Notes under the pieces: model-generated
Database searches by the model: none
The model's input: only the letters and a program-made list of their open reading frames with translations
What the model was told of the DNA's origin: nothing
In this document: positions 23,869-38,159 of the stretch, piece by piece
Position numbering within the stretch: position 1 is the stretch's first letter
Layout: the number at the start of each line of letters is the position of its first letter
NCBI GenBank assembly: GCA_965214095.1
Contig: OZ243938.1
Span: 1,920,001-1,984,000, forward strand
DNA: 64,000 nt
From: Candidatus Poribacteria bacterium
GTDB lineage: Bacteria; Poribacteria; WGA-4E; WGA-3G
Reading direction: 5' to 3'
Program-made: the position numbers and the translations under genes

Positions 23869-24195
23869 TCATAGTGCAACATCTAACGTCTTTAGGCGAT
23901 CTTGCCGTTTCTTCCAATCTGGTAGATATGTAGACATATACCCCTTAAACAACTGACCGTGATTCGGTACGAGCAGATGTACCAATTCATGCACAATCAC
24001 AAATTCTGTCAACGTTTCTGGCAGATTTAACAGTTCCGTGTTGAGCGTCAATCTGCCGTTGGTTGAAATAGATGCCCATTTTTTTCGCATTGAACGCAGA
24101 TGTACCTCCCGCACTGTGACACCGATACGTTCTGCCCACTGCTCTACTGCACCTTTCAAATCTGTTGGGTTATCCAATACCTTTTCGGTTTTCAT
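23869..24195 (-). CDS. Short YgjP/M48-like (DUF45) metallopeptidase
   Basis: MRKKWAS, FVIVHELVHL, NHG; overlaps the hsdR stop. Confidence 0.85.
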   Translation of the reverse strand: MKTEKVLDNPTDLKGAVEQWAERIGVTVREVHLRSMRKKWASISTNGRLTLNTELLNLPETLTEFVIVHELVHLLVPNHGQLFKGYMSTYLPDWKKRQDRLKTLDVAL

Positions 24196-27059
24196 ACCCG
24201 TTTCAACTTCAGTAACTTGTTTGTTGTTTCAATGAGATTATTTGTTCCAATTGTTGGGCTCAATGTCTTATACAACATACTACGTAACGCTTTCGCTTGG
24301 TGTTCGTCCCACTGATGGTCTGGATATTTTTCAAAGATTTGATTGACAGACTGTGCTTGTTCAGGCGTAATATTGTCTTTAACATTTCTTAGTACAGTAA
24401 AAATAGCATAGGCGTTATCGCCTAATTCAGTATCGTTTTGTTCTCTTTCTGCGCGTGAGATTTCTATAGCATACTTCATGAACTCAGTTAATGCATCTTT
24501 TGTACCTAACTGACGATTGTCCAAATTTTCTATAACTGCTTCTGTGCGTTCGCCAATTGGGATCAGGAAAGGTTTTGCTTCACTTTCATTTGCAACTGTT
24601 CTCCGTAATACTTTCCGCAAATTCAACACTTTAACGGTATCAGATACATCACTCTGACTTAATTCCATCAAGCTTGTTTCGTTCAATTCATAAACATCAT
24701 CGGTGACATCTAACAAATTGCCTTCCGTTTCTGTCTGTAAAAGTTCCTGCGTTTTAGCTACCAACTCTTTATCAACAGGAATATTATCTGAATATTTATT
24801 GCGAATCAATCTATATAGGGATGCTAAGGCTTTGTAGTCCTCTAAAAATGGGTGTAAGAAGGGGTCAGGGGATATGATGTTGTAGAGATTCTGTAACTGT
24901 TTGAAGAACGTGAAAAATGTCTCTCGGTCATCCTTATCTGCAAAATATTCAATAGCACGTTTTATTGCTTTATCGTCGGTTCCTTCGGTTCCTTCGGTAA
25001 GGGGTAGATACTTCTGCGCGTCTCCTTGCATCATTTCCTTAAATCTGTCTTTGATTTCATCAATGTTTTGAAGGACGCTTTCCACTTCGTCCGAATCAAA
25101 AGCGAGTGCCTTTTCTAATTTCTCAAAAATACCAACAAAATCTAATACAAACCCCGCAGGTTTTACTAATCCATCATCATCTTCATAAGGTCTGTTAACA
25201 CGTGCAATTGCCTGTAATAACACATGGTCACGCATCGGTTTGTCAAGATACATGCAGTAAAGGATAGGAGCATCGTACCCCGTCAACAATTTTTGGGTTA
25301 CAATCAAGATTTTAGGTTGTGAATTTTTGTCAATGAAATTTTTACGTATCTCCTTTTCCTGCTCATCCGACAGGTGATAGTTTTTCATCAACTCGTTATC
25401 GCTATTGTTTTTAGAATACACAACCGTCGAATATTCGGTGGGTAGGTATTTATCTAATTCCTGTTTGTATAGTGCACACGCCTCGCGGTCAACACCGACT
25501 AGAAATGCCTTGAAGTCTTCTGCGACAAATTTAGCAATTGCCTCAACTCTGTTAGGTGCTTTCATTATCACTTTTAGACTTACTGCGTCGTCAAGGATTG
25601 CATTGAGTTCATCTGGATCACTTATCCCTTCCGCTGCTGCAAGGCTTAGAAATTCACTGTCCAATGTCTCTGGATCAATTCGTAAATTTGATGGAGCAAG
25701 AGCATAATTCAAACTTAGTGTTGTGCCGTCTTCAATAGATTCAGCAATTCCATATTTATCAAGGTATCCCTTCTCGTCGTCCTTACCGAATACCTTAAAA
25801 GTTCCTTCGCCTTTTGATAGAGTATCAATCGGTGTTCCTGTAAATCCGATGTAGGTTGCATTTGGTATAGCGGCCATCAGGTAATTCCCAAAGTCCCCAC
25901 CTGTGGTTCTATGTGCCTCGTCTATTAACACAACTGTATTCTCGTGAGTGTTAAGATTGGCAGGTCTCTTATCAAACTTGTGAATCGTGGATACAATCAA
26001 ACCACGATAACCTGATGATAAGATACTTTCAAGGTTATTTCTGCTCTGGGCAACTTCAAGTGTAGTTATTCCGTAAGCGTTTATGTTTTTAAAGAGTTGA
26101 CTTTCTAATTCATTGCGGTCAACCACCATCAACACAGTAGGTTTTTCAGTTTGCTCTCCACCTCGTAAGAGTCTTGATGCAATTGAAATCATGGTGAGGG
26201 TTTTACCACTGCCCTGTGTATGCCAGATAAGTCCGTGCTGTTTAGCAGTATCATTAACTCGATCAATCACTTTTTCTACTGCCCGTGTCTGATGTTGACG
26301 TAAGACAACTTTAGAAAGTTTCTCGTCTCTGCTCTGAAAAATTACAAATCGATGCAATACTTGAAGTATACGTTCACGGTCAAAAAAAGTTTTCACCTTC
26401 TGCTCATAGTTTGCAGATTCGTCCGATTTCCAATTGAAGATATTTTTTCGGTTGGTGTTCCATGTCACACTATAGAGAAGATTCAGCATGTCGGTGACAG
26501 CGAAGAGTTGTGCAGTGGTAAACATTTCAGGCGTTTCGTTGTGGTATCGGAAAATTTGATCTACTCCATCTTCTAACCCGTCCCGTTTGTCAGCAGGTTT
26601 CGTCTCAACAACTGTAACAGGAATCCCATTAATGAGGAGGACAACATCCGCACGGTTGGTGTAGACAACTCCTTTCTGTTCCCATTCATCGGTAACATGA
26701 AATAGGTTATTGTCAGGATGCTCAAAATCAATGAGGGTAATGTTACGTTGGCGGTTTTCACTGTGAACGAAAGTTGATTCCTTACCGTGCATCCATGAGA
26801 TTGCGTCCTGATTTCCCTCAAGTGTTGCTTTAAGTGAATCAAGGCGGCGTATAACGTCATCACAGTTAGAATCGTCTATAATTCCCTTGTTAAGTTTTTT
26901 GAGTTGGGCATTCAGTACATCTGTAAAATAAAGCCCGAAGATATTACCACCACGTAGTTGCATGGCTTCTGCTCTGGACACGCGCGTCCATCCGATTTCA
27001 TTAGCATATTTGAGTAGTGGTTCTTGGACTGCAGATCGTTCAGGCATAATCGTTTCCAA
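24192..27059 (-). CDS. hsdR: Type I restriction endonuclease subunit R
   Basis: RADVVLLINGIPV..VETK, WHTQGSGKT, DEAHR, GFTGTP, LLTGYDAP, QAIARVNR. Confidence 0.95.
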   Translation of the reverse strand: METIMPERSAVQEPLLKYANEIGWTRVSRAEAMQLRGGNIFGLYFTDVLNAQLKKLNKGIIDDSNCDDVIRRLDSLKATLEGNQDAISWMHGKESTFVHSENRQRNITLIDFEHPDNNLFHVTDEWEQKGVVYTNRADVVLLINGIPVTVVETKPADKRDGLEDGVDQIFRYHNETPEMFTTAQLFAVTDMLNLLYSVTWNTNRKNIFNWKSDESANYEQKVKTFFDRERILQVLHRFVIFQSRDEKLSKVVLRQHQTRAVEKVIDRVNDTAKQHGLIWHTQGSGKTLTMISIASRLLRGGEQTEKPTVLMVVDRNELESQLFKNINAYGITTLEVAQSRNNLESILSSGYRGLIVSTIHKFDKRPANLNTHENTVVLIDEAHRTTGGDFGNYLMAAIPNATYIGFTGTPIDTLSKGEGTFKVFGKDDEKGYLDKYGIAESIEDGTTLSLNYALAPSNLRIDPETLDSEFLSLAAAEGISDPDELNAILDDAVSLKVIMKAPNRVEAIAKFVAEDFKAFLVGVDREACALYKQELDKYLPTEYSTVVYSKNNSDNELMKNYHLSDEQEKEIRKNFIDKNSQPKILIVTQKLLTGYDAPILYCMYLDKPMRDHVLLQAIARVNRPYEDDDGLVKPAGFVLDFVGIFEKLEKALAFDSDEVESVLQNIDEIKDRFKEMMQGDAQKYLPLTEGTEGTDDKAIKRAIEYFADKDDRETFFTFFKQLQNLYNIISPDPFLHPFLEDYKALASLYRLIRNKYSDNIPVDKELVAKTQELLQTETEGNLLDVTDDVYELNETSLMELSQSDVSDTVKVLNLRKVLRRTVANESEAKPFLIPIGERTEAVIENLDNRQLGTKDALTEFMKYAIEISRAEREQNDTELGDNAYAIFTVLRNVKDNITPEQAQSVNQIFEKYPDHQWDEHQAKALRSMLYKTLSPTIGTNNLIETTNKLLKLKRV

Positions 27060-27246: not shown

Positions 27247-27775
27247 ATAAGGTGTCATTGTGCATTTGTAGGTTTATCTTCAGTTGTTGAATGTCCGAGG
27301 CGCAATGAATTGCGCGACTACGAACAACTATTTCTTTATTGGTATATTCTTTATTAGAAATGGTATTACAACTATTCTTAGAAAAACAAGGACATTCTTA
27401 CTGAGATCACGGTAACTCATTCCTGTTTCCATTTCTCTGTTTCTTAATATAAGGGGTACTAAAATTTTGAAAAACCCAAACATGCCGTAAAGCTGATGCC
27501 TACGCAATTCAGTCAAAATTACAGATGTTCATTTTTTTAGTACCCTCCCCTAATTTGCGAACTACAATTTATTGTCAGATTATACCATTTCTAAAAAATG
27601 ATTTTCTCTTTTCATTTAAATGTCCGAGGCGCAATGAATTGCGCGACTACGAACAGCTATTTCTTTACTGGTATATTCTTTATTAGAAATGGTATAAGGT
27701 ATCATTGTGCATTTGTAGGTTTATCTTCAGTTGCTGAATGTCCGAGGCGCAACGAATTGCGCGACTACGAACGCC
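27247..27775. repeat. Cluster of three REP-like hairpins in ~118-bp repeated units, interrupted by a small TIR element
   Basis: tgtccgaggcgcaa(t/c)gaattgcgcgactacgaac at ~27292, ~27621 and ~27739 with repeated intervening sequence; gggtactaaaa/ttttagtaccc element at ~27452-27547. Confidence 0.85.
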
Positions 27776-27885
27776 GCAATTCTTAAGATAATTTTCACTT
27801 CATTTAATAATTCGCTATAAACACAAAGACCGGACACATCCTGCTCATTCGGTGGCATTCGCCGGAATACAATTGTCCTATCATT

Positions 27886-28527
27886 TTAATCTGTGTTGTT
27901 GCTTTTGGAAGTATCGGGTAATGCTTTTGGTGCCTCCGATGTATTGGGTAATGCTCCTTGTGCTTGGATATCTGCAGCTTCTATTTCTGCAACGATTAAC
28001 TGGCTATCAAGTGCGGGTAGGATATCAAACGTAGTTTCAGTTTCGGGTTGATGTGCCTCAGCTATGGATTGATACAACGAAACCGCAGTTGCAATATCTT
28101 TTGTGATAGATGCGTATTCTTTGATCGTTAGTCCTTCGTGGAAATTGAAACCTGTTTTTTCAAGAGCGAAGTTCAAATTATCTATATGCCTATCAAATGC
28201 ATTGAGTAAATTACTCCCCATAGAACGTACATAAGATAGACGTCCCTCACGATACACAGCACCGTACTTTTTGGTGCAAAACTTTTTATCATTTGGATTG
28301 CACGTGCGTATGGTTTCACGTAGAATAGATTTGGCATTCTCATCGTTCAAGTCTTCAGAAAACTCATATATCTCTTTATAATATTCAATTATACTGTCAA
28401 GTACATCGCCTATTTTAATTCCATTGCCGATAGCATACGCCACATATTCTCTCATACGCGTGGGTATTTTCTTTAGTTGTTCGGCGGTGAGTTCCTCTTT
28501 GTTTGTCTCCGTTGTCTTCTCTGACAT
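27886..28527 (-). CDS. Hypothetical protein (213 aa)
   Basis: AAGGAG RBS, own promoter; no family recognised. Confidence 0.7.
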   Translation of the reverse strand: MSEKTTETNKEELTAEQLKKIPTRMREYVAYAIGNGIKIGDVLDSIIEYYKEIYEFSEDLNDENAKSILRETIRTCNPNDKKFCTKKYGAVYREGRLSYVRSMGSNLLNAFDRHIDNLNFALEKTGFNFHEGLTIKEYASITKDIATAVSLYQSIAEAHQPETETTFDILPALDSQLIVAEIEAADIQAQGALPNTSEAPKALPDTSKSNNTD

Positions 28528-28760
28528 TTTTGTTCTCCTTAATAATATAGTGAAATGTAAAAACACGGGCACACTACTCGGTAGATTTGATTTCCTAACC
28601 GCGTCTTTGAAACTGAACAAACATCGGTTCGGTTAGATAAAGATTAAGAATTAATATCGGCAATATGAGATCAAAGTCCAGCGCGCTTAGAAAGTGCCTA
28701 CGGGTTTTGAGTGAAAATTAGAATTACCGATTCACATTCCGCTCATACGATTAATAAATT

Positions 28761-28822
28761 TATAACATATCATCTATTTGATATGTTATATTTATTTTAA
28801 CACATATATTTTAGGTTGTCAA
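28761..28822 (-). promoter_or_regulatory. Sigma70 promoter with an adjacent 12-bp palindromic operator
   Basis: TTGACA-17-TAAAAT; TATAACATATCA-6-TGATATGTTATA just downstream of -10. Confidence 0.7.
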
Positions 28823-29113: not shown

Positions 29114-30505
29114 TTACTGACTAAGACTGAGTAGTCGGAACTTAATATTGGTTTCATCTTTGGTCTCACCAATTTCAGCGAATCCTTGTATCTCAGCAAT
29201 ATATGACTTACTTACTGTAGCGTTCTTTACGATTTCAGTCTCATAAGCTTCCTCTACGATTTTTCCTTTAAAAAAGTCTTTTTCATACAAATTATCATCA
29301 GACGTTTCTATCTCAAATGATTTGGATCTGAGAGATATACCAACTAATGTGCCCTGGATTTTGATTGTTTCTAATGTTTCTTCTTGAATTTTCTCAAGAA
29401 TATCAATAGCCTTTATCATTTGCGATTGTGAAAGTTGGGCTGTTCCACCACGGTCTGGATGTGGCGATGTCCACGTGAAGCTGGTATCTTCTACAGATTC
29501 GCTAAGTGGTTTGAGAAACTCAGTGTAATCCTTTGCTACCCTTGGTCCAAATTGCTCCATGAGTGGTTTCAGTTGGTCTTGGTTACATCCAGAATTAAGG
29601 ATTTTCAGAAATTCATTTATTGCATTTCCAAGATCAGATTCCAATAAACCGCCATATTCTGTTGATGCAAGTTGAATTTCAAATGAACCTGCACCAACTT
29701 CCAACATTGAGATACCAAAGGGATTCCGGATGTCTTCAAGTATTTTCTTATATGTTGAATTAACACATTTCGCACCGACTCTGTTAATTACTTTTTGTAA
29801 ACTAGTAAGTATATTGCCTAAAGAGTCTATCGGTGCTTCTGTTCTAAAAACTCCAAGATATTTGAAAGTAATCTTAAAAAGATCACGAGCAATAGACGAT
29901 GCTATTTCTTGTGGACTTCGGAGTGGTGGAAGTGTATCGGTTTTTAGTGCGAGGCGTTCACCTGGCAGCGGTAATATATCATCGACGATCTGATTTGGCT
30001 GGATGACTTCCGGGTATGGGTCTGTTGAATCATCGTGTGGAATTCTCATCTGGAACAGGATACCATTTTCAGTTTCGGTGAACGCATTACGCAGATCTAT
30101 TCCACCAGATCGGATGTGATTTAAACGATCTTTAGAGATTCCAACGCGAAGCCATATTTTTTCTTGATCGTTTTCGCCAACGGTAACAAGGTAAAGATGA
30201 CCTGCAGAGTCTTTACATGAAAAGAGAACTGGATCGTCGTTCTGGACATAGTTTTCGATGACTTTGTGTACACCAAGGTATGGAATATCATACTGAATAG
30301 GGATGTTTAAAGACGGTTGCGGAACATTGTCACCGTCTTCTTGTAATCCTTCAATATGAAATTCGATAGCTTCTTGGATTAATGTTTGGACTTCTTCCAG
30401 TGTCTCACCTACGGTGATGCAACCGGGAAGGTCTGGCACATAAGCACCATAACTGCTATCACCCTTTTCATAAATTACAACATAATCCATTCGTTTATCC
30501 CTCAT
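29114..30505 (-). CDS. HicB-like antitoxin domain fused to a ~400-aa DUF6575-like region
   Basis: YGAYVPDLPGCITVGETLEE..IQEAIEFHIE, then PVLFSC...WLRVGIS..RL..IRSG.IDLRNAF; no stop between them. Confidence 0.78.
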   Translation of the reverse strand: MRDKRMDYVVIYEKGDSSYGAYVPDLPGCITVGETLEEVQTLIQEAIEFHIEGLQEDGDNVPQPSLNIPIQYDIPYLGVHKVIENYVQNDDPVLFSCKDSAGHLYLVTVGENDQEKIWLRVGISKDRLNHIRSGGIDLRNAFTETENGILFQMRIPHDDSTDPYPEVIQPNQIVDDILPLPGERLALKTDTLPPLRSPQEIASSIARDLFKITFKYLGVFRTEAPIDSLGNILTSLQKVINRVGAKCVNSTYKKILEDIRNPFGISMLEVGAGSFEIQLASTEYGGLLESDLGNAINEFLKILNSGCNQDQLKPLMEQFGPRVAKDYTEFLKPLSESVEDTSFTWTSPHPDRGGTAQLSQSQMIKAIDILEKIQEETLETIKIQGTLVGISLRSKSFEIETSDDNLYEKDFFKGKIVEEAYETEIVKNATVSKSYIAEIQGFAEIGETKDETNIKFRLLSLSQ

Positions 30506-30690
30506 TGCTCAATATCTGCTTGTTTCAGAACGCTTTTGCGTGTGCCTATCGGGACATCTTTGCCCATTTTACCGGGAATTGTCACTTTGCCTTTTTTTGT
30601 TGGATGTTTAAATTGCTGATGACTGCCTTTCGTCTTTATATAATACCACCCATCATCTTCAATCAGTTTTATGAGTTCTCTTACCTTCAT
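30502..30690 (-). CDS. hicA: HicA mRNA interferase toxin
   Basis: IEDDGW, KGSHQQFKHPTKKGKVTIP, GT..SVLKQA; ATGA overlap with the partner gene. Confidence 0.93.
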   Translation of the reverse strand: MKVRELIKLIEDDGWYYIKTKGSHQQFKHPTKKGKVTIPGKMGKDVPIGTRKSVLKQADIEQ

Positions 30691-30785
30691 AAACGCAGCC
30701 TTCCGGCATTCCTACACCTGCACGTTAAACAGATACAATAGCACGTAACGCTTGCAAATCTCAATCATTTTGCTGTGTGATAATA

Positions 30786-30814
30786 ATCTTAACATATACA
30801 ATTTCGTTTGTCAA
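30786..30814 (-). promoter_or_regulatory. Sigma70 promoter of hicA
   Basis: TTGACA-17-TAAGAT with extended -10 TG. Confidence 0.7.
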
Positions 30815-30830
30815 GAAAAATTGAAAATCC

Positions 30831-32123
30831 TCATACGTCCATCTCCTCAATTAGTGGCACAGCAGACCGTTGTCCTGTCATCAGTTCATCCAGCATGGCG
30901 TGGAATAGCTCGTCTATAAGCTCAATTTCTCGTTCAAGGGCTGCTGTTTTATCATCTATTGCTCGGAAAATGTTGGCGATGGTGTGTTGTTCGGTAAGTG
31001 GGGGTAGTGGAATTTCTAAGTTTACAAGTGCTTCTTTGTTTAACCGCTGGCGACCAGTCGTGCCCTGCATTTTCCCCGCCAGCGATGTGCGTACGGTTGG
31101 AAGCAATAAGTAATAGAAAAGGAATGATATATCGCTAACACCTTCAACTTCCCGAATTGGAATTACTTCGGTTGTAGCAATACCAAATGGTGTTGGCAAA
31201 TTCTTAAAAATACACTGTTTCCCGTTTTCAAAAGATGGTGTAATTTTGGCAAGAAGAATGTCTCCAAGTTCAAAGTAAGTTCCACTCTTTAGTTCATCAT
31301 TCGTTTTTAGAATGAAATCTTCAGAATAATGTTTGGCAATTGGAATCAACTCCATTGGGACAAATGGTATTTCTTTATATTCTGAATATCGTAGGTCCTT
31401 TGGTTTCTTTGTAAATATAACCGTATCCAACAATCTCATAACTTCCCAACTCTCAGGTATCTCACCAATTTCTGTCTGTTTGCGGGGTTCGTCCTTCGTG
31501 CCGTGAGAAAAGAGAAAATCCATCAATGCTGCTTTGCGTTCGCGTTCTAATTCAATTTCGCGTTGTCGGGTGAACTTTGCTTCTTGGATTGTGTGTAGGA
31601 TGTGGGCAATGGCGCGTTGTTCGGGGAATGGGGGCAGGGGAATTGTCGTGTCTTTGTAATCTTGAAACATCAAGTTTCTAATTCCAGTTGTCCTTTGTTG
31701 TAGTTGCCGAGTTTTTCCAGAGTCATGAAAATATAAGAGATACAAAAAGAGATAAAATGGGTGGACTTTCTTCTTATCAATAATCCTTAAGCGACTTGTG
31801 AAATTACTAAAACAGTATTGTCCATCATTAATGTTAAAAAACACGACCCTACCAACAGGTTGTTTTGGACCTCCACCAGACCGCTCAATAACAATATCAC
31901 CCCATTTCAGTTTTTTCTTGGCTAAATACCTCTGTTCTATAGGTAAGACTGCTACATCTGTTAAGTCAAGGTATCCATCGCTGGTGAAATTAGTGTTTCT
32001 TACAACAGCACATTCCTCAAACGGCTCTTTTTTTCCTTTCCAAATACCACTTTCAAAACTGAATAAATCTTGATTTGATAACTTTATCAATTCCCAATGA
32101 TCAGGCAAATTCATTTCATGCAT
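30831..32123 (-). CDS. hsdS: Type I R-M specificity subunit
   Basis: Two TRDs, two IPLPP..EQ..IA motifs, GEIPESWE linker. Confidence 0.95.
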   Translation of the reverse strand: MHEMNLPDHWELIKLSNQDLFSFESGIWKGKKEPFEECAVVRNTNFTSDGYLDLTDVAVLPIEQRYLAKKKLKWGDIVIERSGGGPKQPVGRVVFFNINDGQYCFSNFTSRLRIIDKKKVHPFYLFLYLLYFHDSGKTRQLQQRTTGIRNLMFQDYKDTTIPLPPFPEQRAIAHILHTIQEAKFTRQREIELERERKAALMDFLFSHGTKDEPRKQTEIGEIPESWEVMRLLDTVIFTKKPKDLRYSEYKEIPFVPMELIPIAKHYSEDFILKTNDELKSGTYFELGDILLAKITPSFENGKQCIFKNLPTPFGIATTEVIPIREVEGVSDISFLFYYLLLPTVRTSLAGKMQGTTGRQRLNKEALVNLEIPLPPLTEQHTIANIFRAIDDKTAALEREIELIDELFHAMLDELMTGQRSAVPLIEEMDV

Positions 32124-35100
32124 TACGAATCTCCGAATGCTTTTTGGATGTCGTGATATGTTTTAACTTCCTGAAAATTTTCATACGGATCATTGGGATT
32201 TTGGGATACTTGATGTCTATTTCCCCATATTACCCAAATTAATTCACCACCTACTTCTGTTAAAAACCTATCTAATAAATCTTTGCGTAGATATGTAAAG
32301 TGCTGTACGTTTCCCCATATTTCGCCATCTCGAAAACTTATTGAAGCCCGTTTACCGTTTACTTTCTCAAAAAGATCAAAACTTTGAGGATGTCCATATA
32401 GGTCTAAACTGTCTGCAATCTCCCTCGCTGGTATAGCAATTGACCGATGTGGATTTGCTGCACTACAAGATTCCTCCCAACAGTTATCTCTTACCGGTAC
32501 CAATGCCTCAAATTGTTGATATTTGGGTTGCTCTACTTCAACCATTTTTTTCTCTATTTTAAGATTTTGTTCACTTAAACGTGCTTTAAGTATTTCCTCA
32601 TCCTCTATTTCAATTAGATCCGGTGCACTATGCCAAAATTGAAATTCCTCATATAAGGATATAGGTTCCCCATCCCTAAGCAGCTCCAACTGTTCGTGGA
32701 GAACAATATCCTTTTCTATTTCAAACGAAAAATCTTCCCATCCGTTTGTTGGAAAAGTATCACTCCAGGGTATTTCTCCTGCATAAGTTCGATAGTCCTC
32801 TGGGATAAATGGTGCGGTGTGTCCGTCAATATTCTCTTGTCTATTCAAGATATCAACAATTTCCTCAACTTCATCAGATTTTACAATCAATCCTTGCAAC
32901 CAAACAAACATACTACGGTTGACCTGTTTATCTTCTTGGCTTAGGTATCCCTGCAAAAGCACCCAAGAACCTTGTTCTTCACAAAGTTGGTCAACATTCA
33001 AATACGGTGTTAAATCTGGGTGCGGTGTCTTCAATACCCATTGTTCTGTAGATCCTTCACGATCACCTAAATAATCTTCTTTGACTAAATTATACTCACG
33101 GTGTTCATCGGGAAAACTTGGATCAATATCTGCCCCTGAAATACGACCTTCGTCATAGCGATCCGGTAATAAATTGTTATCTTGCCGAAATCCTGCAAGC
33201 TCAAAAAAAGCAATCCACGAGTATTTTTTGCCGTACCTGTCTATTTTTCTGCCATCTCCCGATCTAGCAAACTTTCTATAGTTGCCTTCTGCAAGCCAGC
33301 CATCAATTTCTCCAAAACTTTCCAATGAAAATCCTAAATCGTATATCCTCCAGCGAATATTTGCTACAACACGCTTGTATTCGGGATGTTTGTTATTATA
33401 GGGTGCTCTACCTTTTACTAATGTTCCAAGTGTGTAATTCTCAAAATCCATCTGTAATGGAGCAGGACCTTTTTCATATTCACCTTTATTCTTATTTTCA
33501 CTTTCACCCCAATCTCGTATGCCACCATCTGTAAAAGGTGGTTTTATACGTAACTTTTCGTCATCTGTTAGTAAGTCAGGTTTATGTATCAACGCTATGT
33601 CAATAGTTCGTTTTGCATAATCACGTGCTAATATATGCGTTGTTGCATACGGAGCGTTAGGTTCAAATATGCTTTCATACAATTGTTTTGCATATTTAGG
33701 TAACATTTCATTTACAAAACTGGTATCATCAAAATCGTTTTGCCGTGCCATTGCAATCCCATAAGTTGCAGCTAACATCCGTTCAGGAACATAAGGATCG
33801 TTAATAGTGAAAGATTTAAGGACTAAATCAAAAAACTCATTGGGGAAACGTCTACCATACCAATAAAGAGCGCGTGTTGCTATATCACGTAATGGCCTGA
33901 CTGTTGACGTAAATATCCACATAATGTATTCTGCTAAAAGATGTAGACGTTCTTCTGATACGTCTTGAGCGTTTCGGCAAGTTTTTTCAAAACGTATTAC
34001 TATCTCTTCAAAACTATAACGGTTACGCCGGACATATTCTGTCCAGCTCAGGTCTCGTTCTGACATAGACAGTCCCAAAAGTCGTTCTGACCAAAACGAA
34101 GCATTGAACGGATGATTGGGGTGTCCAACGGTAGTTTCTGCTAACTGAAAGAACGTTTTTCGGTTCTCAGGCACTTCAAAGAGGGTGACGATTAGATTAA
34201 TACACTTTTCGTTTATATTTCTTGGGGAAATTTCAAACAAAGCGCATATTGATAGACCCAATATCTTTTCATTATTTGAAAGCTCGTGCAGAAAATGCCC
34301 TGTCTTGGCTGGTAAGAGTGCAGCCAGACATCTGCTAATGTCTTCGTGCATTGGATGTAAGGTTTGGTGGTCTTCACTAAATAATGCTCCTACTACCTCC
34401 TCACTATTTATGTATCCTTGCACATCGCCATCAGCTTTTTCAAGCAAATATTTGGCAATGAGATAACCTCCGAGTAGGTCGTAGGTAAAATGCATTACTT
34501 CACCAACACCTGTCCAATCTCGATAGACTAACAACCCTTCACTTTCTATGGCATGCGTTTTTGATGACGGCCAATCCAAATGTTCACGGGGTTGATCGTC
34601 TACAATACGGACCAATTCCTCAAAAGGGATCTCGCGACTGCTATGTTGCCACAAGTACTCCGCCATCTTGTTTAAGGCTGACTGAATTATAATTGTTTTT
34701 GGATGACGCTTCAGACGATCGCATATTGCTTTGTTGCATTGCTCCAGATACTCCTCAAAAACTTCAAATAGTGTTTCTTCACCTACATAAATTTCTTTCT
34801 CAATCTCACGTTCACGATTTTTGGTTTCACAGAAAATCTTAAGGAAGATAGGATGTCCAAACTGGCTCAATGATGCCAACGTAAGATTAGCAGTAATTTT
34901 GTACGCTTTGAAGTACTTTTTAACTGCAGGCTCTACCTCCTCGGATGGATTAAAACCGTCGGCATAAGTCAAATTTAGTGAATCCTTATCTTTCCAAATT
35001 ATCTTTCCCCGAATGATATCTTCTCGTGGACTCACCTCTTTCCAAATTGCATCTTTATAGCTCGTGCGACAAGTTGTAATTAACACAAGGTTCTCTGTTT

Positions 35101-36520
35101 GTACAATCTCTTGAACAAATCCTTTTAGTCCAAAGTCCCATATATTTGAAAAAGTCCCGTTATGTACCGATTCATTAAGTCCATCAATTATCAACGGAAT
35201 ACGGGTATGGTATGCTTCAGCAGCGGCTGATAGTGCTTGCAAAAAGTCGTGCCAACTATAGGATGGCGGAATGTCAAGAAGCTCTCGCAACTGAACTTCA
35301 ACTGCTTGATCGGTCCTAAATTGGCTTCCACGAACAAATAGTGCGGGTAATCCGTTTTTCAATCGGTCTTCACAGATATTGCAAGCGATGTGCGTTTTGC
35401 CAATTCCAGCATCCCCAAGGATATGCAGATCCGACTCGTTGATAAGTCCGAGTTGCCAGATTACAGATGGAAAAAATTCATCCATTAATCTGGCAACTAA
35501 GTTATCCGGTCCATGAACAATCGTGCTTGCATAGTTTAAAACTTGATCTTCATATTGCTTTTCAGTAGTACACTTCATCTTTGTTGGGCCAGATTCCCTC
35601 ACAACCTCTCCATAGGCATCAAAAGTTTTGTGAAGCTGATCAAGTGTAAACCTCCAATCTATAGACTGCACCTTTGAGAAGTCTTTTTCAACCAAAAGAT
35701 CTCCTGTTTGTTTCAACTGTATATTGATGTTTAGCAAGAAATCTTGAAGTGATTCAGCTGCCTTGATGACCTTAGACCTTTCTTCTCCATCCCATTCAAT
35801 ATACGGAATTGGAGAATTGATCTTATTAATCGCATCCTTTAAATCTGTGAGTTCTTCTTCAAGTTTTACATTCCATTGATCAATCTGTTGCACAAATGCT
35901 TTATCACCTAAAAGCGCGTGAATTTCAGCATCTACGTTAGTTTCGGTATGCAATGACGAATCAAATTTTTCACCCACGCCAGCCATCTGTTTGTCAAAAT
36001 GTGTTTTAAACCATTCAAGATCAAGTTCCAACTCACCGAAAAAATAGTGCCGTTTTCCACTAAAGCGAGATTTACTCATCCAGTCGTTGAAGTCACTGTC
36101 TCCCCAGTGTTCAAGATCGACATCCATATTCGGTGGAATCGACTGTCGAAGCGTGTTATCAAACCAAACCTGCTCGCCTTGACTTCTCCCCTTTCTGGGC
36201 GTAAAATTAGTGGGCGTACACAAAATCCATTTTTTCAGGTGTGGATGCACTTCACAGGCTTTTTTTAGTGATTTTTTGATTGATTGCTTACGACTATTGT
36301 TCAAGCGTTTATCAGGAAAGTAAAACTTGGCTTGCCAGCCCCATTCGTCTCCGTTTTCCAAGGTCAGATAGAATTCTACTCCGTCACCACCGCCACTATC
36401 GTCTATGGAAGTAAAACGTCCTTCATCTCCATGTAGTCCTTTTGCGATTTGATAACATAATTCCTCAAAACTTCGGTATTTATTGTTTTCATAGGGTTTG
36501 AGTTCTGACCAATCAATCAT
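32123..36520 (-). CDS. Avs (AVAST)-like antiviral STAND NTPase with an N-terminal restriction-like nuclease domain
   Basis: FEELCYQ..GDGVEF..GWQAKF; Walker A GDAGIGKT; Walker B LIIDGLNE; NDPYVPERMLAA, RYGKKYSWIA; 1465 aa. Confidence 0.8.
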   Translation of the reverse strand: MIDWSELKPYENNKYRSFEELCYQIAKGLHGDEGRFTSIDDSGGGDGVEFYLTLENGDEWGWQAKFYFPDKRLNNSRKQSIKKSLKKACEVHPHLKKWILCTPTNFTPRKGRSQGEQVWFDNTLRQSIPPNMDVDLEHWGDSDFNDWMSKSRFSGKRHYFFGELELDLEWFKTHFDKQMAGVGEKFDSSLHTETNVDAEIHALLGDKAFVQQIDQWNVKLEEELTDLKDAINKINSPIPYIEWDGEERSKVIKAAESLQDFLLNINIQLKQTGDLLVEKDFSKVQSIDWRFTLDQLHKTFDAYGEVVRESGPTKMKCTTEKQYEDQVLNYASTIVHGPDNLVARLMDEFFPSVIWQLGLINESDLHILGDAGIGKTHIACNICEDRLKNGLPALFVRGSQFRTDQAVEVQLRELLDIPPSYSWHDFLQALSAAAEAYHTRIPLIIDGLNESVHNGTFSNIWDFGLKGFVQEIVQTENLVLITTCRTSYKDAIWKEVSPREDIIRGKIIWKDKDSLNLTYADGFNPSEEVEPAVKKYFKAYKITANLTLASLSQFGHPIFLKIFCETKNREREIEKEIYVGEETLFEVFEEYLEQCNKAICDRLKRHPKTIIIQSALNKMAEYLWQHSSREIPFEELVRIVDDQPREHLDWPSSKTHAIESEGLLVYRDWTGVGEVMHFTYDLLGGYLIAKYLLEKADGDVQGYINSEEVVGALFSEDHQTLHPMHEDISRCLAALLPAKTGHFLHELSNNEKILGLSICALFEISPRNINEKCINLIVTLFEVPENRKTFFQLAETTVGHPNHPFNASFWSERLLGLSMSERDLSWTEYVRRNRYSFEEIVIRFEKTCRNAQDVSEERLHLLAEYIMWIFTSTVRPLRDIATRALYWYGRRFPNEFFDLVLKSFTINDPYVPERMLAATYGIAMARQNDFDDTSFVNEMLPKYAKQLYESIFEPNAPYATTHILARDYAKRTIDIALIHKPDLLTDDEKLRIKPPFTDGGIRDWGESENKNKGEYEKGPAPLQMDFENYTLGTLVKGRAPYNNKHPEYKRVVANIRWRIYDLGFSLESFGEIDGWLAEGNYRKFARSGDGRKIDRYGKKYSWIAFFELAGFRQDNNLLPDRYDEGRISGADIDPSFPDEHREYNLVKEDYLGDREGSTEQWVLKTPHPDLTPYLNVDQLCEEQGSWVLLQGYLSQEDKQVNRSMFVWLQGLIVKSDEVEEIVDILNRQENIDGHTAPFIPEDYRTYAGEIPWSDTFPTNGWEDFSFEIEKDIVLHEQLELLRDGEPISLYEEFQFWHSAPDLIEIEDEEILKARLSEQNLKIEKKMVEVEQPKYQQFEALVPVRDNCWEESCSAANPHRSIAIPAREIADSLDLYGHPQSFDLFEKVNGKRASISFRDGEIWGNVQHFTYLRKDLLDRFLTEVGGELIWVIWGNRHQVSQNPNDPYENFQEVKTYHDIQKAFGDS

Positions 36521-36524
36521 TGTC

Positions 36525-38159
36525 TTAATCTTCCTTGTTCAATCCAAGTTGCATGAGTACTTCTTCCAATGCGTTATCCGCTTTTTCGCGAGCAATACGC
36601 GCCTCTGTTAAGTCTGCCAAAATTTCATTCATTGGACGGTGTTCAACTTTATCACCGACATCTACAAACTGAGAGGGACTTAGGTTGTAATCGGTTTTCT
36701 GTGCCTCTTCAAGTGTAATAACGTTGCTTAACTTTTCACGCGATTCCCATGATTCATAGACTTCAGTGGCTGCTTTAATTCCATCATCAGTTAGGACGTT
36801 TTTCGGTTTTCCCTTTTCAAAATGCTGGGATAGGTTGATAAGTAGGATCTGATCTCTACGTTCTTCCGGTTTGTTGCGGTTTAGCAGCAATATAATGCCC
36901 GGTGCGTTTGTGTTATAAAATAGATTTTCGGGTAGCAGGACAACACCATCAATCAGGTCTTTTTCAACAAACTTTTTACGTATATCACGCTCGCGGCTGG
37001 TCTGCTTTGCACCAGAACCGCGGGAGACTGCGCCAGTGTCAAGGACAATCGCTGCACGTCCGTTATCTTTCAGAGAAGCGAGCATGTGCTGTACCCATGC
37101 CCAATCTGCAGAGGAACTTGGTGGATTTCCGTGAGAAAATCGGTTCCAACTATCGTTATCATAGAAATCTTCATCGTATTCCTTCTGATTCCACATCGGA
37201 TTTGCTACCACATAGTCAAAACGTTGGAGTTTTGAATTATCGGAAACAAAACGGGGATTGCGGAAAGTGTCTCCTATCCGAATATCCGCGCCGATAAAAT
37301 CGTGTAGAAAAGCGTTCATCTTTGCCATCGCGTAGGTGGTAGGGGTTAATTCTTGTCCGTAGATGCGGGGTGCTTGGCTTTTTTCGTCTGGGTGCGTTTC
37401 ATCAAATTGTAACCGACCTTTGATAAGTAGGCCACCTGATCCGCATGCTGGATCGTAGATAGTGGAATAGGGTTCGGGGTTAAGCAGTTTTGCCATTAAC
37501 CATCCAACCTCTTTTGGTGTGTAGAACTCGCCTGCGCTCTGTCCTTGTCCTTCTGCGAATTTCCGTAATAGATACTCATAAGCACGTCCTAGAATATCCG
37601 GTTCTGCATCTTCAAGTCCCAGCCGATGTTCACTTATAACTTCAATCAGTTTCTCAAGGCGTTGGTCGTCAATAAGTCGTTGTCCGCTTTGTGTTTCGCT
37701 AAAATCTTCTACATTAATCACGCCTTCTAAGCGCGGGTTTATCTTTGCCACCTCTTGCATTGCGTCAGTTACAAACTGTCCTAACCGCCCATCCGCGGGC
37801 TGGTTTCGGAGTGCTTCCCAACTATACTCTTGTGGAATATAGAAACGGACAATCGGGTTGCGCTCAGATTTAAGTGCGTCCTCATGGTCTGCTTCAATTA
37901 TCTCTCGTGCTAATTCTTCATCACCGTACTCCGTTTTCTGTTTTTGGAATTCGTCATCAAACACATCGGAGAGTCGTTTATAGAAGATTAGCGGTAAGAT
38001 GAAATCCTTGAATTTAGGTGCATCGGTTGTACCGCGTATCACACACGCAGCATCCCATAGCCATGTTTCAAGTGTGGAAATGTCTAAATGTGCGTCGTTA
38101 TCGGGTTCCAGCAGGAGTGTGGTTTGTGCGGTTTCGTTTGGGGTTTTGTTTTTTGACAA
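36525..38159 (-). CDS. hsdM: Type I R-M N6-adenine methyltransferase
   Basis: LWDAA, GEFYTP, DPACGSGG, ANPMW, LFYNT. Confidence 0.95.
   Translation of the reverse strand: MSKNKTPNETAQTTLLLEPDNDAHLDISTLETWLWDAACVIRGTTDAPKFKDFILPLIFYKRLSDVFDDEFQKQKTEYGDEELAREIIEADHEDALKSERNPIVRFYIPQEYSWEALRNQPADGRLGQFVTDAMQEVAKINPRLEGVINVEDFSETQSGQRLIDDQRLEKLIEVISEHRLGLEDAEPDILGRAYEYLLRKFAEGQGQSAGEFYTPKEVGWLMAKLLNPEPYSTIYDPACGSGGLLIKGRLQFDETHPDEKSQAPRIYGQELTPTTYAMAKMNAFLHDFIGADIRIGDTFRNPRFVSDNSKLQRFDYVVANPMWNQKEYDEDFYDNDSWNRFSHGNPPSSSADWAWVQHMLASLKDNGRAAIVLDTGAVSRGSGAKQTSRERDIRKKFVEKDLIDGVVLLPENLFYNTNAPGIILLLNRNKPEERRDQILLINLSQHFEKGKPKNVLTDDGIKAATEVYESWESREKLSNVITLEEAQKTDYNLSPSQFVDVGDKVEHRPMNEILADLTEARIAREKADNALEEVLMQLGLNKED

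Follow-up and report, generated by a model that had tools for sequence, protein, structure and literature searches.

A hicA toxin gene paired with a HicB antitoxin domain fused to a DUF6575 protein in Poribacteria: a candidate composite toxin-antitoxin cassette

What is a HicB antitoxin doing when it runs on, in the same reading frame, into some 390 residues of another protein? The question is raised by a two-gene cassette on contig OZ243938.1 of a Candidatus Poribacteria bacterium (GCA_965214095.1), within the 64,000-nt stretch analyzed here (positions 1,920,001-1,984,000 of the forward strand; herein the window). The cassette comprises a hicA toxin gene and a 463-aa open reading frame (ORF) and sits between hsdS and hsdR of a type I restriction-modification (R-M) operon, all on the minus strand. 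It is built from two known kinds of component in a new combination: a HicA:HicB toxin-antitoxin (TA) pair and, as sequence comparison strongly supports, a complete DUF6575 protein, probably of PD-T4-10B type, which forms the remaining ~390 residues of the ORF. With confidence somewhat short of even, we favor the reading that this is a composite abortive-infection (Abi) TA cassette, in which the HicA:HicB pair would replace a small protein, A, as keeper of a PD-T4-10B-type effector. The parts of the cassette are as follows.

30502..30690, minus strand: hicA, 62 aa (Pfam HicA_toxin PF07927, E 2.4e-21)
29114..30505, minus strand: fusion ORF, 463 aa, HicB N-domain joined to a complete DUF6575 protein (Pfam, PADLOC, protein search)
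30302..30505, minus strand: fusion aa 1-68, HicB N-terminal antitoxin domain, partial RNase-H-like fold (Pfam PF15919, structure comparison)
29972..30301, minus strand: fusion aa 69-178, DUF6575 N-domain, beta-rich (Pfam PF20215, model)
29906..29971, minus strand: fusion aa 179-200, linker with the motif LPxPGExLxLxTxTLP (conserved alignment columns)
29381..29905, minus strand: fusion aa 201-375, alpha/beta middle domain, weakly ferredoxin-like (model, VIA-align)
29117..29380, minus strand: fusion aa 376-463, C-terminal oligonucleotide/oligosaccharide-binding (OB) fold (VIA-align, Foldseek)

A first-pass annotation of this DNA had named hicA and an ATGA-coupled ORF whose first ~65 residues are HicB-like, and both identifications hold. 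HicA matches PF07927 over profile positions 2-58 of 58, and because its G22-S23-H24 motif is invariant among the aligned relatives (17/17) it looks active; the His of the HicA Gly-Ser-His motif is the catalytic residue. An intact HicA-family RNase of the double-stranded-RNA-binding-domain (dsRBD) type is thus strongly supported by sequence. The coupling can be read at 30502-30505, where the ATG of the fusion gene (30505-30503) overlaps the TGA stop of hicA (30504-30502; minus strand ..GCA ATG AGG..). HicB_lk_antitox (PF15919) covers aa 9-65 of the fusion (E 3.9e-14) in the same frame as the remainder, and the junction (aa 59-80) contains neither a stop between the two parts nor an ATG, GTG, or TTG codon. 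In the whole-protein model the HicB domain aligns (VIA-align) with 2dsy at Z 9.4 (root-mean-square deviation, rmsd, 1.9; 67 residues aligned) and with HicB3 (6u0i) at Z 9.0; against 6g1c it shows 36% identity over 70 aligned residues (Z 8.0).

The structure prediction of the HicA complex that the first-pass annotation had proposed returned a score of 0.80 for HicA with the whole fusion and 0.00 for the best control; this level is attained by 116/157 solved complexes and 2/215 mismatched pairs, and, HicAB complexes having been solved already, the score may echo likeness to those rather than binding by this copy. Three runs share at least 97% of contacts, with a predicted local distance difference test (pLDDT) value of at least 88 for the partner. 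Contacts fall on fusion aa 11-59, with minor ones at 90, 180, and 183, and on a HicA surface that includes residues 21-24, so that the G22-S23-H24 motif is covered. A HicB domain in the first ~68 residues is strongly supported, and it is predicted to cap the HicA active site.

Measured against HicAB type II TA modules (Yersinia pestis HicA3-HicB3, 4p78; Burkholderia pseudomallei HicB, 6g1c/6g1n), the pair has the same hicA-first order, an overlapping hicB, the HicA GSH motif, the HicB N-domain fold, and, as modeled, an interface over the HicA active site. It differs in what follows the antitoxin domain. Pfam matches no helix-turn-helix (HTH) or ribbon-helix-helix (RHH) DNA-binding domain in the fusion protein; instead there are ~390 residues that appear to be a complete protein of another TA family. 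An HTH or RHH domain does not define the HicB family, class 1 HicB having no DNA-binding domain in the available text of Gerdes 2024. The size range of ~70-140 aa that the first-pass annotation took as normal for HicB was too narrow: the same text lists hicBA classes (7 and 8) with HicB of 216-356 codons and no recognized DNA-binding domain. Those classes resemble the fusion in length, whereas their gene order is hicBA and their extra domains are DUF1902 repeats, not DUF6575. The combination of hicA with HicB-DUF6575 is not among the 14 HicA contexts in the main text of Gerdes 2024, the part compared. Likewise, no description of the architecture was found in the available text of the literature on DUF6575, PD-T4-10, PDC-M63, and HicA/HicB phage defense, in keeping with the earlier suggestion that the system is undescribed.

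The first-pass annotation had called the rest of the ORF unrelated to HicB and had attached the name DUF6575 from motif memory. The name was right: PF20215 matches aa 75-244 with E 1.4e-20 and 74.1 bits, against a curated gathering cut-off of 26.6. "Unrelated" undersells it, since by sequence the segment is a whole DUF6575 protein, and stand-alone members of that family pair with A. At 44% identity, residues 73-463 align over the full length with a 392-aa stand-alone DUF6575 protein encoded within the phylum, downstream of a gene A; the fusion therefore carries a whole DUF6575 protein, not a fragment. Beyond the Pfam domain, aa 225-430, where the middle domain lies, match the PADLOC candidate PDC-M63B (PDLC04749, E 1.3e-10), aa 225-412 corresponding to profile positions 76-263 of 309. 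The N-domain corresponds to PF20215 profile positions 8-116, the portion retained in every short form.

DUF6575 is a large family of unknown function, and the comparisons reported here assign it a context. It comprises 1146 representative clusters at E≤0.001, most of them ~400 aa long and beginning at the DUF6575 N-domain. Its neighbors in the ESM Atlas come from Pseudomonadota and Bacillota, and members are also found on plasmids of Oscillatoria, Arthrobacter, and Rhodococcus. A tblastn search of 50,697 phage records with aa 67-463 gave no match; BFVD contains a DUF6575 protein from a Siphoviridae viral contig (E 3.9e-14). A CHAT protease domain precedes a complete DUF6575 protein in one 710-aa relative (P0206).

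A model of aa 67-375 built from 83 diverse relatives is of high quality (pLDDT 92.6; predicted template-modeling score 0.85). The best PDB matches (VIA-align) are at Z 5.4 for the N-domain and Z 5.0-5.2 for the middle domain, the latter with ABM-like and RAMP-like rows, and Foldseek finds nothing in the PDB at E≤0.001 for this region. A fold assignment for aa 67-375 was dropped, the best Z of 5.4 lying below the level that indicates more than a common arrangement. From the whole-protein model (pLDDT 73.7) only HicB and OB matches were obtained. The OB fold of aa 376-463 aligns at Z ~8 with PriB, SSB, and Rim1 (3fhw: Z 8.3, rmsd 2.5, 77 aligned), and Foldseek likewise returns OB rows for the C terminus. 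The DUF6575 module, weakly ferredoxin-like plus OB, probably binds nucleic acid. The linker motif (aa 179-195) is family-wide, occurring in the 83 diverse DUF6575 proteins, and was of low pLDDT or unstructured when first modeled; truncated and re-fused forms repeatedly break at this point, and the short forms end there.

Stand-alone DUF6575 genes in Poribacteria follow gene A, which encodes ~125-150 aa. None of the 22 aligned A-like proteins has a Pfam family, and the A profile reaches no better than E 0.22 against PDB sequences. PADLOC PD-T4-10_A matches 12/14 A-like proteins tested (best E 4.5e-9), and PD-T4-10_B matches the DUF6575 N-domain in 5/5 relatives tested (best E 2.8e-7). A was found in 68/176 genomes of the phylum by profile search. 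DUF6575 matches, 150 of them listed, occur in 97/176 genomes with up to 6 per genome; A lies 27-69 bp upstream of 86 of the 150 listed, among them 28/33 with open frames of 300-444 aa. Short frames holding only the N-domain make up about two thirds of the 150 listed (62 of <190 aa and 37 of 190-299 aa), and 54 of these 99 have A upstream. The arrangement extends beyond the phylum: on an Oscillatoria plasmid a hypothetical gene 9 bp upstream of the DUF6575 gene matches A (hhalign 99.9%), and on an Arthrobacter plasmid A is an unannotated 138-aa ORF overlapping the DUF6575 start. In the loci sampled, stand-alone A/B pairs are flanked by housekeeping genes, not R-M genes.

PD-T4-10 of Escherichia coli consists of two overlapping ORFs and acts by Abi against T-even phages; B is toxic, co-expressed A fully neutralizes it, and A cannot be deleted (PMC9519451, available text). 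DUF6575 is named among the new domains of 21 E. coli systems by Vassallo et al. 2022, and the PADLOC matches suggest that PD-T4-10B is the protein meant, the available text of that paper being silent on which system carries the domain. By analogy, the stand-alone DUF6575 protein and the A encoded upstream would form a two-gene Abi system, with the former as toxic effector and the latter as its restraint. Its relatives share with PD-T4-10 the N-domain match to PD-T4-10_B, the A-upstream order, and the tight spacing. The cassette differs from PD-T4-10 in that A is absent, with hicA and a fused HicB domain instead, and in its C-terminal half, which matches PDC-M63B in place of the remainder of the PD-T4-10_B profile. 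PDC-M63, a PADLOC candidate two-gene system, is similar through PDC-M63B, which stand-alone DUF6575 relatives match over profile positions 37-307 of 309; it differs in that PDC-M63B-type proteins (P0126, P0132, P0141) have no DUF6575 N-domain and no Pfam match. PDC-M63A was not detected among four neighboring proteins scanned (HicA, the 244-aa protein described below, and Avs2 at E≤0.01; HicA and the 244-aa protein at E≤10).

A search of other genomes for HicB joined to DUF6575, which the first-pass annotation had put forward as a check, finds the architecture repeatedly. Among 5.8 billion clustered proteins there are 147 relatives, and the best 120 of these divide into 47 full-length HicB+DUF6575 fusions (446-469 aa, 63-93% identical), 53 DUF6575 proteins standing alone (374-395 aa, with 46-54% identity across 83-84% of the query), 13 fusions of HicB and the DUF6575 N-part to a Uma2 nuclease domain (378-386 aa), 6 shorter pieces, and 1 protein with HsdR domains. 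The genome loci encoding the fusion protein all belong to Candidatus Poribacteria metagenome-assembled genomes, sponge symbionts (8/8). A 195-position profile of HicB plus the DUF6575 N-domain (herein the core), run over the 176 genomes of the phylum, matches at near full length in 30 places and partially in a further 2. The 32 places are spread over 31 genomes and confined to two genera of a single family.

Gene A is missing from the vicinity of every core (0/32 within 5 kb). None is found at E≤1 in the genome of the window, which is 94.5% complete, by the identical query that finds A in 68/176 genomes, and 13/31 core-bearing genomes have no A anywhere. A and the HicB domain are mutually exclusive, and, since A is never adjacent to fused cores, hicA and the HicB domain occupy the position of A. 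The idea that A is itself a diverged HicA+HicB fusion (62+66 aa, about the size of A) was rejected, hhalign giving 0.1% against the HicB+DUF6575-N profile and 0.6% against HicA.

The fusion is maintained, with purifying selection on every segment. Over 13 full-length genes (76 pairs) the median pairwise ratio of nonsynonymous to synonymous substitution (dN/dS) is lowest for HicB (0.09), followed by the linker (0.20), the DUF6575 N-domain (0.30), the C-terminal domain (0.31), and the middle domain (0.32). Decay was surveyed by tblastn with 1.5-kb flanks at 30 loci (L040-L069, including the window's own; some come from the same genomes as L001-L007 and are counted once). In these flanks hsdS lies upstream in 20 and hsdR downstream in 20. 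The 13 full-length loci have an essentially complete hicA in 10, a partial one in 2, and none in 1, whose fusion gene has an internal stop; the ATGA-type arrangement recurs in 10/13. In the 17 loci truncated at the linker (~aa 185-237), hicA is essentially complete in 5, partial in 4, and absent in 8. hicA and the C-terminal module thus tend to be kept or lost jointly. The truncated core is fused to Uma2 at two loci (L053, L063). At another (L066:1048-1500, plus strand) a 150-aa PIN_3 toxin gene lies directly upstream of the HicB-DUF6575 gene, in the usual place of hicA.

The reading we favor runs as follows. hicA and the 463-aa ORF would form one translationally coupled Abi cassette of the TA type, an accessory unit between hsdS and hsdR, and in the fusion lineage HicA and the HicB domain would have taken over from A. 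The resting HicA:HicB-N complex would silence HicA and keep the tethered DUF6575 effector inactive; phage infection or decay of the complex would then set HicA free to cut RNA, or switch on the DUF6575 module, or do both, and the infected cell would be arrested. The toxicity of the module, its control by HicA:HicB, and the trigger are putative. If correct, a HicB antitoxin domain has been welded to the toxic component of another TA family (PD-T4-10B/DUF6575) whose own antitoxin was discarded, which would be a clean example of partner swapping in defense TA systems and a handle on the control of the uncharacterized PD-T4-10 toxin. Its reach is set by the material: uncultured sponge symbionts of one bacterial family, with every functional step inferred.

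Several observations weigh against this interpretation. Control of the DUF6575 module by HicA:HicB-N is something we infer here rather than demonstrate directly. The fusion of the window matches PD-T4-10_B weakly (E 0.054) and through the N-domain only, its C-terminal half being like PDC-M63B and not like the C-terminal half of PD-T4-10_B; with a match of this extent, the toxic part of PD-T4-10B may or may not be shared. Deletion of PDC-M63AB in its native host, E. coli NILS69, revealed no defense (PMC12409345, available text). No catalytic fold or motif was recognized, aa 67-375 staying at a best PDB Z of 5.4 despite the pLDDT of 92.6. Five loci have an intact hicA beside a truncated fusion, and the C-terminal module is therefore dispensable for holding HicA. 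Finally, the core (190 codons) is equally constrained in 12 short loci where hicA is partial or absent (dN/dS 0.095 and 0.24), soft evidence in that pairwise dN/dS spans time preceding the hicA losses; persistence of the core without hicA does not follow from the favored model and is unexplained by it.

Could the module instead be a sensor? In the explanation offered by the first-pass annotation, which we judge rather unlikely, HicA is the sole effector, and the DUF6575 module would sense a trigger, for instance by means of an OB fold that binds a nucleic acid or protein of a phage, upon which HicB would release HicA. The HicB domain is the most constrained segment (dN/dS 0.09), the C terminus has a fold that commonly binds nucleic acid, and the DUF6575 module stands where an ordinary HicB has its DNA-binding domain. 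Antitoxin domains that bear sensors are known, CapRel being an example. The five loci that lost the C-terminal module with hicA intact are what would be expected of a regulatory part whose removal is not lethal. The idea is only partly supported. However, the stand-alone homologs pair with PD-T4-10A-like genes, and the sole experimental anchor, the toxicity of PD-T4-10 B in the available text, points to an effector. Strict exclusion of A (0/32, against 86/150 listed DUF6575 matches with A upstream) is not needed by a sensor, and its fusions with nucleases and restriction enzymes make the N-domain look like an adaptor on the effector side.

These last fusions bring in the R-M operon, whose place around the cassette had been recognized in the first-pass annotation, with hsdS upstream and hsdR downstream. 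Its other features in the window are as follows.

36525-38159, minus strand: hsdM (Pfam)
32123-36520, minus strand: Avs2-type STAND NTPase gene, 1465 aa (PADLOC Avs2, E 5e-180; NACHT match weak)
30831-32123, minus strand: hsdS, 430 aa, directly upstream of the hicA cassette (Pfam Methylase_S, E 2.4e-27)
30786..30814, minus strand: promoter-like TTGACA-17-TAAGAT with an upstream TG, ~95 nt 5' of hicA (putative, from sequence)
27886..28620, minus strand: gene for a 244-aa acidic protein of no family, between the fusion gene and hsdR
24192..27059, minus strand: hsdR, 955 aa, downstream (Pfam HSDR_N, SWI2_SNF2, ResIII, T1R_D3)
23869-24195, minus strand: YgjP-like metallopeptidase gene, 108 aa, overlapping the end of hsdR (Pfam)

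The Avs2 gene is inserted between hsdM and hsdS, its stop abutting the hsdS start; the operon is, for this reason, a general insertion hot spot for defense genes, and HNH, TPR-PIN, FRG, and Uma2 genes are inserted in related operons. Orthologous hsdR genes number 87 hits in 86/176 genomes. The core lies ≤5 kb upstream of 25/87, all in one family (f1), and of 0/26 hits in two sister families; viewed from the cores, 25/32 have an orthologous hsdR ≤5 kb downstream. Because the core accompanies only 25/87 orthologous hsdR and none in the sister families, the hicA-fusion cassette is an accessory insertion, not a constant subunit of the operon. The candidate role of the core as an integral part of the R-M operon was rejected on the same count.

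The DUF6575 N-domain is nevertheless joined to restriction enzymes repeatedly. At one locus (L071:849-4355, plus strand) the HicB+DUF6575-N core is in frame with a complete HsdR, giving 1168 aa, and a second cluster (P0116, 774 aa) also has this core fused to HsdR. Outside the HicB lineage, a 1772-aa ORF (L070:1033-6351, plus strand) has the DUF6575 N-domain (aa 23-139) heading a complete Type ISP restriction-modification enzyme (Pfam Mrr_cat_2, ResIII/helicase, ISP_coupler, N6_Mtase, and Type_ISP_C), and a PD-T4-10A-like gene lies just upstream (L070:651-1052). Two further genomes have frames of 1778 and 1785 aa, also preceded by A; of these three genomes, one was scanned with Pfam. Such recurrence suggests a regulatory link between TA modules and R-M systems. 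A bolder extension, which we advance as speculation and consider unlikely, would make the N-domain (~110 aa) a general gate through which a small keeper holds DNA- or RNA-targeting effectors inactive. The part of keeper would fall to protein A, acting in trans, or to a HicA that a fused HicB domain has captured, and the gate would be joined by turns to a PDC-M63B-like module, Uma2 nucleases, HsdR, and whole Type ISP enzymes. Were this so, TA logic would switch restriction enzymes, and the cassette would act as a suicide back-up with two effectors and a physical link to the neighboring type I enzyme, resembling PrrC although made of unrelated parts.

PrrC is also the model for an explanation that we regard as improbable, in which the core would bind to HsdR or to the whole type I complex, and a phage anti-restriction factor, by disabling the enzyme, would bring about the release of HicA, the C-terminal module, or both. 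The prrC gene likewise lies inside a type IC operon, whose enzyme sequesters PrrC until T4 infection (PMC3874165, available text). A latent RNase gene within a type I hsd operon is what the cassette and PrrC/EcoprrI would have in common, a resemblance in possible working only. The setting between hsdS and hsdR, with orthologous hsdR close downstream of 25/32 cores, fits such a guard, as do the two in-frame fusions of the core to HsdR, the N-domain at the head of 1772-1785-aa Type ISP enzymes in the three genomes above, and a core still constrained after hicA loss. Yet the enzyme works without the core, which only 25/87 orthologous operons have (0/26 outside family f1), the operon takes up defense genes of many kinds, stand-alone A/B pairs sit among housekeeping genes, and accidental deletions could have produced the in-frame fusions. 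In sequence the cassette is unrelated to PrrC, and neither of its proteins matches an ABC-type NTPase or anticodon nuclease (ACNase) domain in Pfam.

Little weight, too, goes to a plain selfish HicAB addiction module, in which a captured DUF6575 protein, functionless or merely dimerizing, replaces the DNA-binding domain and has no role in defense. Decay is common, as that would predict: the linker is the point of truncation in 17/30 loci, and 15/30 have a partial hicA or none. The distribution is confined to one family, and HicB without a DNA-binding domain is common (class 1 in the available text of Gerdes 2024). Against it, dN/dS values of 0.31-0.32 show purifying selection on the middle and OB domains, hicA and the C-terminal module tend toward joint retention or loss, and the setting is a defense island beside Avs2 and R-M genes. 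An assembly or sequencing artefact, or the one-off accidental fusion by insertion that the first-pass annotation had kept as its alternative, is excluded by conservation and purifying selection and has a vanishingly small chance, the identical full-length architecture recurring in 47 protein clusters (best 120 of 147 relatives) and 13/30 loci, and all sampled words of the stretch being present in four DNA runs, possibly including the source sample.

One of the DNA runs also holds a variant that skips hicA, with a joint from 30505 to 30847, which fits the hicA-less loci. Relatives 85-95% identical are present in two metatranscriptome libraries from different studies, and one 560-nt contig bridges the hicA/hicB junction; this is a hint of hicA-fusion expression, DNA being able to contaminate such libraries. 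RNA runs X22 and X23, whose sequences are contigs of relatives, leave parts uncovered (e.g., 29896-30023) and are uninformative on transcription.

The promoter that had been assigned to hicA is putative. The TTGACA-17-TAAGAT site is present, while promoter-like sites in the region are not enriched (13 found, 13.7 expected from shuffles). In an upstream alignment of 14 loci the leader is conserved without a clearly common -35/-10, so conservation is partial. An own promoter at 30814..30786 is plausible from sequence.

The 244-aa protein matched nothing in Pfam and PADLOC scans. Relatives of its gene occur only in some loci (L001/L040, L052), the slot elsewhere being occupied by a Uma2 nuclease gene or empty, and the gene has its own promoter-like site at 28822..28794; it is probably an optional neighbor outside the hicA-fusion system. 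In the 825-bp gap between this gene and hsdR, an ~80-nt repeat with a GC-rich palindrome core (GCGCAAT..ATTGCGC) occurs three times at 27247-27813 and looks like a repetitive extragenic palindrome (REP) or a miniature inverted-repeat transposable element (MITE). At the far end of the operon, the position of the YgjP-like gene is kept in related loci, by Pfam in L001 and as ORFs of similar size in L002-L007.

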